DNA of 64,000 nucleotides from Escherichia coli (GTDB lineage Bacteria; Pseudomonadota; Gammaproteobacteria; Enterobacterales; Enterobacteriaceae). Location of the stretch: NCBI RefSeq assembly GCF_044324875.1, contig NZ_CP172185.1; one strand, written 5' to 3'. The notes under the pieces were generated by a model. That model searched no databases. It saw only the letters and a list, made by a program, of their open reading frames with translations, and was not told where the DNA came from. The position numbers and the translations under genes were made by a program. This document shows, one piece after another, positions 23,636 to 24,766 of this stretch. Position 1 is the first letter of the stretch. Each line of letters opens with the position of its first letter.

Positions 23636-24766
23636 ATGTCGACTCTGTTTACGATTAATGCCTGCAAGTCGTTTGGTTGCCGTAATTTAGGGCAGCCAAC
23701 ATCGACAGATTATAGCTGGCCCGACTATCGACTGGGTTATCCGGCATTGCACTGTCGGGCATGTGGCAGTTACCCGCCGTTGTTTGACGAGCAACAATTT
23801 CGTGACTGGTTGACAGTTCACTTATCTACTTTTGCAACAGAGAAAGGCCATTTTTGCCCGGTATGTTATGGCACAGAGACGATTTGTTATGGTCACAATC
23901 CACAGGGTTCGCAACGCATTCAATGCCGTAACTGCAAAAAAGTATGGACACCCAAACAATATCAGAAAGAAATAACGCCTCCCGAAATAATCGAAACGGT
24001 TGCTTTTCTCGTGCCATTTCAGGGAGTCAGCAGCGGGCAGAAACTGTATGTTTTAATCAGTTTTGATGCTCTTCGCGGTAATATTCTTCATCTTTCTACT
24101 AATTACACGCAGCATCAGGCTGGAGAAAGTCTGCATTATCGATACAGAGGAAATGCAGAACCAGAGTTACACGACAATAATATTGTACAACGCGTTGATA
24201 TGCGCGAAGCACAATTTCTACGCCGCAGTCAGTTTGATGAAATTCAGTATGGCAGCGCAGCGCTCAAGCGCAATGCCAAAGGCATTATTCTGCGTCCGGT
24301 TATCACAGCGCACGGGCATTTTAGAGTACTGAATATTTTATTCCCTACAGTAAAAACACATGTAATTTCACACGAGTGTTTTTTAAGAGGTGCGATTATT
24401 ACGGCCTGGGCAGAACTGTTTCGCCAACAGCAAGGTGAGATTTGGTTTATTGAAGAGGAAATAGCTGACTATACCGATAATACGCCCTGGCGTTTTCAGG
24501 GAACAACTTATCACGGCTGGTGGAAAAATCAGTGGCAACTTTGGGGTCAGGGCAAAAATCGTAAAATGGTATGTGCATTAACAGGCGGAAATAACAGCAA
24601 AGCTGAAATGCTCTCTTTCGCAACCAGCAGACATTTTATCGACTGGCTACATAAACAAGCAGTATTTACTCACAGCACCCCGCTTTCCGCAGGGCGCGTT
24701 ACGCAAATACTGCTTTCTCTGGCTCAGGATTACAACAACTGCGCCAGCCGGTTGATATCCGACTGA
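23636..24766 (+). CDS. Cys-rich protein with N-terminal zinc-ribbon motifs (transposase InsA-like signature), C-terminal domain of unknown function
   Basis: 376-aa ORF; Cys pairs C10x4C15, C40xxC43, C74xxC77, C97xxC100; segment CPVCYGTETICYGHNPQGSQRIQCRNCKKVWT resembles IS1 InsA-type zinc ribbon (from memory); 3' end overlaps metL 3' end antisense by 37 nt. Confidence 0.7.
   Translation: MSTLFTINACKSFGCRNLGQPTSTDYSWPDYRLGYPALHCRACGSYPPLFDEQQFRDWLTVHLSTFATEKGHFCPVCYGTETICYGHNPQGSQRIQCRNCKKVWTPKQYQKEITPPEIIETVAFLVPFQGVSSGQKLYVLISFDALRGNILHLSTNYTQHQAGESLHYRYRGNAEPELHDNNIVQRVDMREAQFLRRSQFDEIQYGSAALKRNAKGIILRPVITAHGHFRVLNILFPTVKTHVISHECFLRGAIITAWAELFRQQQGEIWFIEEEIADYTDNTPWRFQGTTYHGWWKNQWQLWGQGKNRKMVCALTGGNNSKAEMLSFATSRHFIDWLHKQAVFTHSTPLSAGRVTQILLSLAQDYNNCASRLISD

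Follow-up and report, generated by a model that had tools for sequence, protein, structure and literature searches.

Convergent overlaps between neighboring genes are generally accepted to originate by small indels that displace a stop codon. Here, we analyze such a pair in a 64,000-nt stretch of Escherichia coli DNA (contig NZ_CP172185.1 of RefSeq assembly GCF_044324875.1), referred to below as the window. One member is a cysteine-rich open reading frame (ORF), which we call hyp; the other is metL, which encodes aspartate kinase/homoserine dehydrogenase II. Our analysis makes it probable that their overlap is real, inherited, and old, and that its present 37-nt form arose through a 14-nt deletion at an older junction.

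The interval between metL and metF has been described as GR 31 in B2 strains of extraintestinal and avian pathogenic E. coli (ExPEC/APEC). The passages of that account that we draw on assign to GR 31 a Tsx-like channel and three UshA-like nucleotidases, propose a nucleoside degradation and transport system, and treat the region as strain specific (PMC12928451). The module in the window lies in the same chromosomal interval, but it is a two-gene form that lacks tsx and two of the nucleotidases. Among the GR 31 ORFs given in those passages the Cys-rich gene is not listed, and the metL overlap is not mentioned in them. A literature search for the hyp/metL overlap and for the hyp protein family found nothing on either; the GR 31 account in B2 strains alone turned up.

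The 3' ends of hyp and metL overlap by 37 nt

The junction is made up of the following features, given in window coordinates.

23636 to 24766, plus strand: Cys-rich ORF (hyp, 376 amino acids) from the ORF list; its C-terminal end is LAQDYNNCASRLISD, followed by the stop
24730 to 27162, minus strand: metL (aspartate kinase/homoserine dehydrogenase II); its C terminus, IQSDINRLAQLL followed by the stop, is unaltered by the overlap
24730 to 24766, both genes: 37-nt convergent overlap of hyp and metL, from the ORF list, the sequence, and a phase map
24731 to 24736, plus strand: TACAAC hexamer, the Y366-N367 codons and the site of a 14-nt gap; putative merged copy of two direct repeats
24737 to 24766, plus strand: the tail NCASRLISD and the TGA stop, read from the metL antisense

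A preliminary description of this DNA had the ORF stopping at 24766 and metL ending at 24730, with 37 nt shared. The ORF list, the sequence, and RefSeq all confirm this geometry; in other E. coli genomes, RefSeq annotates both coding sequences (CDSs) with the identical overlap (2637 to 3767 on the plus strand and from 3731 on the minus strand). The shared nucleotides comprise the third base of the D365 codon, 11 sense codons (YNNCASRLISD), and the TGA stop, and a phase map shows that the third codon positions of hyp and metL coincide along the entire overlap. Read in antisense, the TACAAC hexamer supplies two bases of the metL stop, the last Leu codon, and one base of the preceding Leu codon.

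hyp ends where the metL antisense first offers a stop in its frame, 9 codons past N367. This length of read-through is unremarkable compared with a random frame (about 3 stops per 64 codons). The nonrandom part is the recurrence of the exact junction, which is found in 1,182 of the 5,426 complete genomes that constituted our E. coli allele census. Beyond E. coli, the window-type junction is present in Escherichia whittamii, one genome of an Escherichia cryptic clade, Pseudocitrobacter vendiensis, and Pseudocitrobacter cyperus, and all seven window-type genomes compared have the 37-nt overlap. By comparison of these sequences, hyp and metL are a convergent overlapping pair whose shared nucleotides are predicted to be coding on both strands and are conserved across genomes.

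hyp is a real gene under selection. Among window-type hyp alleles, the ratio of nonsynonymous to synonymous divergence (dN/dS) is 0.13 to 0.24, over a dS of 0.2 to 0.4 (dN/dS for metL, 0.01 to 0.05). One could argue instead that the ORF is not a real gene and the overlap is an annotation artifact of a chance ORF, given that hyp has no Pfam match above the cutoff and is annotated as a "hypothetical/cytoplasmic protein." Next to no probability attaches to this idea, however. A word-indexed search returned 253 homologues at an E value of ≤0.001, and a profile search of a 50%-identity library yielded 148 representative homologues, with length conserved in the close relatives. The gene neighborhood is conserved even at 23 to 30% identity. 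An AlphaFold2 model based on a 52-sequence alignment that included distant relatives reached a predicted local distance difference test (pLDDT) score of 94.5 and has a recognizable fold (the 22 close homologues alone gave a pLDDT of 46), which also speaks against a chance ORF, as does the dN/dS ratio.

The conserved core of hyp ends at Tyr-Asn

Among the 22 close homologues, Y366 is invariant and N367 is nearly invariant, with no conservation beyond. In the 52-sequence alignment, which reaches down to 20 to 25% identity, N367 is conserved in 92% of sequences and Y366 in 75%. These alignments place the end of the conserved core of the hyp family at Y366-N367. The tail NCASRLISD and its variants NCARRLISD and NCASLLISD are restricted to genes that abut metL in the window-type way. 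The tail polymorphisms S372R and R373L are synonymous changes in metL, and the metL C terminus is invariant; the last nine residues of hyp are thus, as far as sequence comparison can tell, a passenger peptide dictated by metL.

The preliminary description had offered as one explanation that the native C terminus was lost to fortuitous read-through at an insertion junction. The first half of this claim stands in a limited sense, since homologues share the protein only to Y366-N367, none of the nine residues beyond that point is conserved, and NCASRLISD occurs nowhere other than next to metL. The second half does not, since the cause would be a 14-nt deletion at an old junction and not an insertion. 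The other explanation offered, that the overlap is ancestral, is borne out by the older overlaps and metL relics described below.

Other genera have a 26-nt overlap, and non-metL copies carry metL relics

In six genomes from three genera (Klebsiella, Kosakonia, and Phytobacter), hyp is 378 amino acids long, ends in YN-xx-LTAAAPDG/GG, and overlaps metL by 26 nt in the other phase. The junction of this type reads ...TAT AAC GCG ACG CTT ACA GCA GCT GCG CCA GGC GGT TGA, in which TTA is the metL stop. Two Citrobacter genomes with an insertion of repetitive extragenic palindromic (REP) sequence still have an ORF that reads 26 nt into metL. Most of the Citrobacter loci examined (L021 to L033, at about 10100 to 10215) have REP elements inserted between hyp and metL, and Citrobacter hyp tails (e.g., ...LPGGAAAYRAYGSCHM) are translated REP sequence.

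The module is also found away from metL: E. albertii and some Escherichia carry it near kdsA, and Klebsiella sp., Enterobacter, and Citrobacter are among the taxa that carry it elsewhere in the chromosome. These copies have tails such as YNCKLTAASGE. After YN plus two codons, their DNA can be aligned, without loss of register, to ~70 nt of metL 3'-end antisense, a match that runs on beyond their own stop codons. At four loci (in Klebsiella sp., E. albertii, E. coli SCPM-O-B-8794, and Citrobacter wls619), 43 to 47 of 65 to 70 positions are identical, a match equaled in 0 of 500 mononucleotide shuffles.

L006, about 9110 to 9180; L007, about 9100 to 9170; L019; and L039, all antisense of metL: metL relic after hyp, by alignment

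Because these relics stay in register past the copies' own stops, the non-metL copies must go back to a gene next to metL whose reading frame already ran into it. By this alignment evidence, the hyp/metL overlap predates the non-metL copies. A metL relic after hyp was also sought in the B2, Citrobacter farmeri, and Kluyvera loci, where none was found, so this derivation cannot be extended to them.

A 14-nt deletion likely gave rise to the 37-nt overlap

An alignment anchored on metL has a clean gap of exactly 14 columns that only the window-type clade shows. The absent columns (G TAT AAC GCG ACG C in Klebsiella oxytoca) are present in the 26-nt-overlap genes and in the relic-bearing copies, and the gap falls exactly between the Tyr-Asn codons and the antisense of the metL stop. 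In the relatives, the Tyr-Asn codons lie 14 nt upstream of TACA(G/A)C, the antisense of the metL Leu-stop, so that near-repeats stand 14 nt apart (TTACAAT/TTACAAC or TTACAAC/TTACAGC). The second, other-locus copy in E. coli SCPM-O-B-8794 has TTACAAT...TTACAAC.

We propose the following course of events. The older arrangement would be that seen in Klebsiella, Kosakonia, and Phytobacter, in which the last 26 nt of hyp, encoding the end of ...YN-xx-LTAAAPDG, are metL 3'-end antisense. An ancestor with the E. coli metL end (TTG TTG TAA) would have carried TTACAAC-N7-TTACAAC. In the Escherichia/Pseudocitrobacter lineage, 14 nt would have been lost between TAC AAC (Tyr-Asn) and T TAC AAC (the antisense of the metL Leu-Leu-stop), most likely by replication slippage between the two direct repeats, leaving one copy. 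The merged TACAAC would then serve both genes, as Y366-N367 on one strand and as Leu-stop on the other. The deletion would shift the frame of the tail by two, yielding NCASRLISD, and place the stop 11 nt deeper in metL, yielding the 37-nt overlap; the core to N367 would be left intact and hyp still functional. The 14-nt gap is observed directly, and slippage at such an ancestral repeat is its likely source. We also considered whether the deletion had recreated the YN motif by luck and rejected this idea, since slippage between repeat copies automatically retains one.

A different starting point is offered by a five-gene form, metF-5'NT<->hyp-5'NT-5'NT-tsx-metL, found in 659 of the 5,426 E. coli genomes, where 5'NT stands for UshA-like 5'-nucleotidase; every carrier examined was a B2 strain (e.g., UTI89 and NC101). 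In this form, hyp is 374 amino acids long, ends in YNESLTPSC, and has no contact with metL. The corresponding nucleotidase gene of the window is as follows.

21950 to 23503, minus strand: UshA-like metallophosphatase/5'-nucleotidase (5'NT), divergent from hyp and its constant partner in all genomes examined

This gene has 96 to 98% nucleotide identity to the metF-adjacent 5'NT of the B2 GR 31. The window allele might have come from a B2-like one if ~4.6 kb (the tail, two 5'-nucleotidases, and tsx) had been lost in a deletion running from the Tyr-Asn codons (TACAAT) to the TACAAC of the metL stop; the five-gene form sits at the same site, and the same microhomology is available there. We consider this origin quite unlikely, because the 3' 230 nt of the window hyp are 61 to 68% identical to the B2 allele and 88 to 94% identical to Pseudocitrobacter, and because E. 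whittamii and Pseudocitrobacter have the identical junction in loci without tsx. In addition, the 14-nt event relative to the 26-nt relatives is a smaller change, and these relatives include the closest protein relatives carrying the metL relic.

Several observations weigh against derivation of the 37-nt form from the 26-nt form. No undeleted Escherichia intermediate was found, and the perfect 7-nt ancestral repeat is a reconstruction. The window protein is 70 to 78% identical to the other-locus copies versus 57 to 63% identical to the metL-adjacent genes of Klebsiella and Citrobacter. hyp is also a mosaic, with a 5' part like the B2 allele and a 3' part like Pseudocitrobacter. The mosaic and the closer resemblance to other-locus copies argue for recombination or horizontal transfer in the history of the gene, which blurs its deeper history; descent from a Klebsiella-like state may not have been strictly vertical. 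The type B loci (C. farmeri and Kluyvera) and the B2 allele have no metL relic, which makes the polarity tentative at the deepest level. Finally, the genomes compared are not independent, and the shuffles used for the relics and for the hairpin comparison (below) were mononucleotide shuffles.

The 5'NT/hyp pair is probably a long-standing resident of the metF-metL interval

To place the junction in its wider context, we scanned synteny in one genome per species (35 loci, annotated by tblastn). The order metF-[lysR-CMD]-5'NT<->hyp-metL-metB, where CMD denotes a gene of the carboxymuconolactone decarboxylase family, is found in about 20 species representatives from 8 genera. Carriers include species of the Citrobacter freundii complex, K. 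oxytoca, K. pneumoniae, K. spallanzanii, Kosakonia, Phytobacter, Superficieibacter, Pseudocitrobacter, and E. whittamii; Kluyvera and C. farmeri have rearranged versions of the metF-metL interval. A decaying locus is seen in Salmonella enterica subsp. arizonae (L042, 7371 to 10678), where 5'NT is intact and hyp is recognizable only at residues 126 to 368, about 950 nt from metL.

Divergence of the module keeps pace with that of its flanks, both within Escherichia and relative to P. cyperus. Compared with E. whittamii, dS is 0.26 for 5'NT, 0.23 for hyp, 0.24 for metL, and 0.36 for metF; compared with P. cyperus, it is 0.715 for 5'NT and 0.727 for metL. The P. vendiensis module (L010, 7314 to 10131) has a dS of 0.27 to 0.34 relative to E. 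coli, far below that of its flanks (metL, 0.71; metF, 1.16), which indicates an intergenus transfer into P. vendiensis, presumably by homologous replacement. The 5'NT at this locus is apparently frameshifted near its 3' end.

The following features bear on the state of the interval in E. coli.

21719 to 24728: 3,010-bp segment lacking in K-12-type E. coli; its right end is the metL stop codon
21701 to 21846: putative relic of the metF-lysR spacer and the lysR 3' end (compare Pseudocitrobacter), from a weak nucleotide match

Toward metF, the last window position with homology to K-12 is 21718; the homology picks up again at 24729, a single base short of the metL stop. Apart from the window-type and five-gene carriers, the remaining E. 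coli genomes, about two thirds, are K-12-like: their spacer is 348 bp long, and its ~198 bp nearest metL consist of unrelated DNA with REP sequences; a search of this spacer for remnants of the module returned only REP-like matches. In the window, a REP-like palindrome (ATTCGGCCTGCGC/GCGTAGGCCGAAT, 21864 to 21893) lies 57 nt past the 5'NT stop and may be a 5'NT terminator or a REP element.

Other genera keep the lysR-CMD pair between metF and 5'NT. The lysR match in the window is weak (72% over 115 nt and 86% over 28 nt), and tblastn detected no LysR or CMD remnants in the window spacer; the match nonetheless suggests that the lysR-CMD pair was deleted from E. coli. Taken together, synteny across genera, divergence like that of the flanks, and the lysR relic make loss the simplest account of the K-12 state, and K-12-like E. 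coli most likely lost the 5'NT/hyp pair.

The preliminary description had instead drawn an island boundary within about 40 bp of the metL stop. On such an account, a two-gene island was acquired at this stop with its end inside the ORF, and the native C terminus was lost on insertion. The boundary itself is real in one sense: presence and absence among E. coli do end exactly at the metL stop, the segment is missing from about two thirds of E. coli, and the hyp tail is indeed nonnative. hyp also has a GC content (0.43 to 0.47) below that of metL (0.57 to 0.60; metF and 5'NT, 0.48 to 0.53), the sole island-like trait and a point against long residence. An inserted island is nevertheless highly improbable. 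The identical gene pair occupies the identical site in at least 8 genera, and its divergence within Escherichia matches that of its flanks. Given the older 26-nt overlap and the metL relics elsewhere, hyp and metL were neighbors long before E. coli arose. A search around the segment turned up neither direct nor inverted repeats flanking it, no tRNA or integrase marks it, and the lysR relic suggests that a larger ancestral locus has eroded. We therefore hold it probable, as part of the same reading as the 14-nt deletion, that the 5'NT/hyp pair is a long-standing resident of the metF-metL interval in Enterobacteriaceae and not an island inserted in E. coli.

A hairpin within hyp is a candidate metBL terminator

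The metL-sense transcript contains a strong predicted hairpin inside the hyp coding sequence.

24657 to 24715, minus strand: hairpin with 27-nt arms and a ΔG of −42.8 kcal/mol, within hyp codons 341 to 360

It begins 15 nt past the metL stop (z score, −6.4; 0 of 200 shuffles) and is directly followed by the U-rich GUUUAUGU (24649 to 24656); the hairpin tail, UUGUUUAUGU, is U rich but interrupted. The opposite strand folds much more weakly (−24.5 kcal/mol). All eight of the Escherichia, Pseudocitrobacter, and Klebsiella genes directly abutting metL have a minus-strand minimum free energy of −30 kcal/mol or stronger. Nothing this stable was seen in the 10 other-locus copies that were folded, in the B2 allele, in the type B loci, or in the REP-separated Citrobacter and Superficieibacter genes. 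One hairpin-less copy has an almost identical amino acid sequence. The Escherichia and Klebsiella hairpins differ by two compensatory pairs, and in K. pneumoniae, a terminator scan calls a terminator-like site at the corresponding position.

The overlap of hyp and metL leaves no space between them for terminators, and the embedded hairpin is probably where the metBL transcript ends. Accordingly placed in hyp codons 341 to 360, the metBL 3' end may be formed by this hairpin as a candidate terminator or 3' stabilizer. Three points count against that role. The hairpin has no canonical U-run, and a simple terminator consensus scan, which found no site between or near the hyp and metL ends, did not flag it; three Kosakonia and Phytobacter genes abut metL and yet have no hairpin; and the z scores of the Klebsiella hairpins are modest under dinucleotide shuffles. 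An Rfam search of positions 20000 to 29000 at a permissive threshold gave nothing relevant.

These features raise the question of whether the overlap is kept for a function of its own, with convergent transcription or complementary 3' ends coupling a nucleoside-scavenging regulator to the methionine operon (e.g., by antisense effects, RNase III, or transcriptional interference). The overlap does persist across genera in two phases, it leaves no space for separate terminators, and the hairpin at the junction is strand asymmetric. We regard this function as unlikely, however. In Citrobacter, REP insertions keep the two genes apart, and in the B2, type B, and other-locus copies they are not adjacent at all; hyp is still conserved in all of these. 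Moreover, neutrality equally predicts persistence once a stop sits inside a constrained gene.

hyp belongs to a probably transposase-derived family paired with nucleoside scavenging genes

The modeled hyp protein has two N-terminal Cys4 zinc ribbons, the second of which is InsA/IS1-like, followed by an RNase H-like fold of the DDE transposase/integrase kind. Sequence and structure matches are faint: a sequence-profile search of the PDB gave nothing below an E value of 0.4, and a Foldseek comparison of the model with the PDB gave only weak matches (E ≥ 0.02). For the InsA ribbon, the window protein scores below the cutoffs for PF03811 (14.9 versus 26.1 bits) and NF050000 (21.8 versus 28 bits), and 16 of the 52 family members match PF03811 (best E value, 4e-8). 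Within the family, R197 and H228 are invariant, and 90% or more of the members share H246, E247, W296, W300, and N367. The conserved acidic residues D144, D201, and E247 are candidates for the canonical DDE positions.

hyp is always divergent from the UshA-like 5'-nucleotidase gene. Homologues with 23 to 30% identity (L045 and L048) are divergent from genes for a NupC transporter and a nucleoside phosphorylase or from a 5'-nucleotidase gene, and larger versions of the module contain Tsx paralogues. The region between the two divergent genes of the window has these features.

23504 to 23635: divergent 5'NT/hyp spacer, 132 nt, equal in length in the five genomes compared
23563 to 23578: perfect CRP consensus TGTGAGAGTAATCACA, with no other in the 64-kb window
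23607 to 23628: conserved palindrome CAACGA-N10-TCGTTG, immediately upstream of the hyp start

Exactly 132 nt separate the two genes in E. coli, Pseudocitrobacter, Klebsiella sp., and E. albertii. The perfect CRP consensus in the 5'NT promoter region is a likeness to the CRP (and CytR)-controlled nucleoside scavenging genes of E. coli (tsx, udp, deo, and cdd). Unlike in those systems, the partner here is an uncharacterized zinc-ribbon protein and not a LacI-type repressor.

The N-terminal Cys4 ribbon of hyp resembles the InsA ribbon of IS1/IS1595-type transposases and domesticated transposases, and its C-terminal domain is modeled with a transposase/integrase-like RNase H fold. However, hyp differs from IS1/IS1595-type transposases in being single copy and syntenic, in scoring below the family cutoffs, and in always being paired with nucleoside or nucleotide scavenging genes. 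It occupies one place per genome, its position is syntenic within lineages, and a search for terminal inverted repeats bracketing hyp found none. From its predicted domains and its neighbors, hyp is probably a transposase-derived, domesticated regulator of nucleoside and nucleotide scavenging. A bolder proposal would be that hyp is a still-active or recently tamed IS1-like DDE recombinase that mobilizes the nucleotidase/Tsx cargo and adjacent host DNA. The ~70-nt metL relics (kdsA-proximal in Escherichia; also in Klebsiella, Enterobacter, and Citrobacter) would then be the footprint of exit from the metF-metL interval, and the tail and embedded metBL terminator would couple nucleoside scavenging to methionine biosynthesis. 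We consider this very unlikely.

Discussion

For annotation, our results mean that both CDSs are correct as called. For E. coli pangenome work, the metF-metL interval should not be labeled an island; it is better described as an ancestral locus that most E. coli have lost and that exists in three allelic states. The junction also illustrates that a small deletion, here probably due to slippage, can rephase an antisense-encoded protein tail with neither gene harmed. A neighbor's coding sequence can dictate a protein C terminus, and such a tail is a molecular fossil that traces the source of paralogous copies. The more promising lead, in our view, is this uncharacterized zinc-ribbon family, which probably descends from a transposase and whose members are consistently found next to genes for nucleoside and nucleotide scavenging.

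The hyp/metL pair is of a known kind. Like other bacterial convergent overlapping pairs and cases of C-terminal overprinting, it consists of two real genes on opposite strands that share their 3' ends, the tail of one is read from the antisense of the conserved coding sequence of its neighbor, and the overlap arose or changed by a small indel that moved a stop codon. It differs from other convergent overlaps in its unusually detailed history, with an older 26-nt phase and a derived 37-nt phase that are one 14-nt deletion apart; in a hexamer that provides both the codons of an invariant motif and the antisense of the neighbor's stop; and in relics of the neighbor's 3' end that have been carried to other loci. 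hyp/metL is thus a convergent overlap with an antisense-encoded passenger tail whose history can be reconstructed unusually well.

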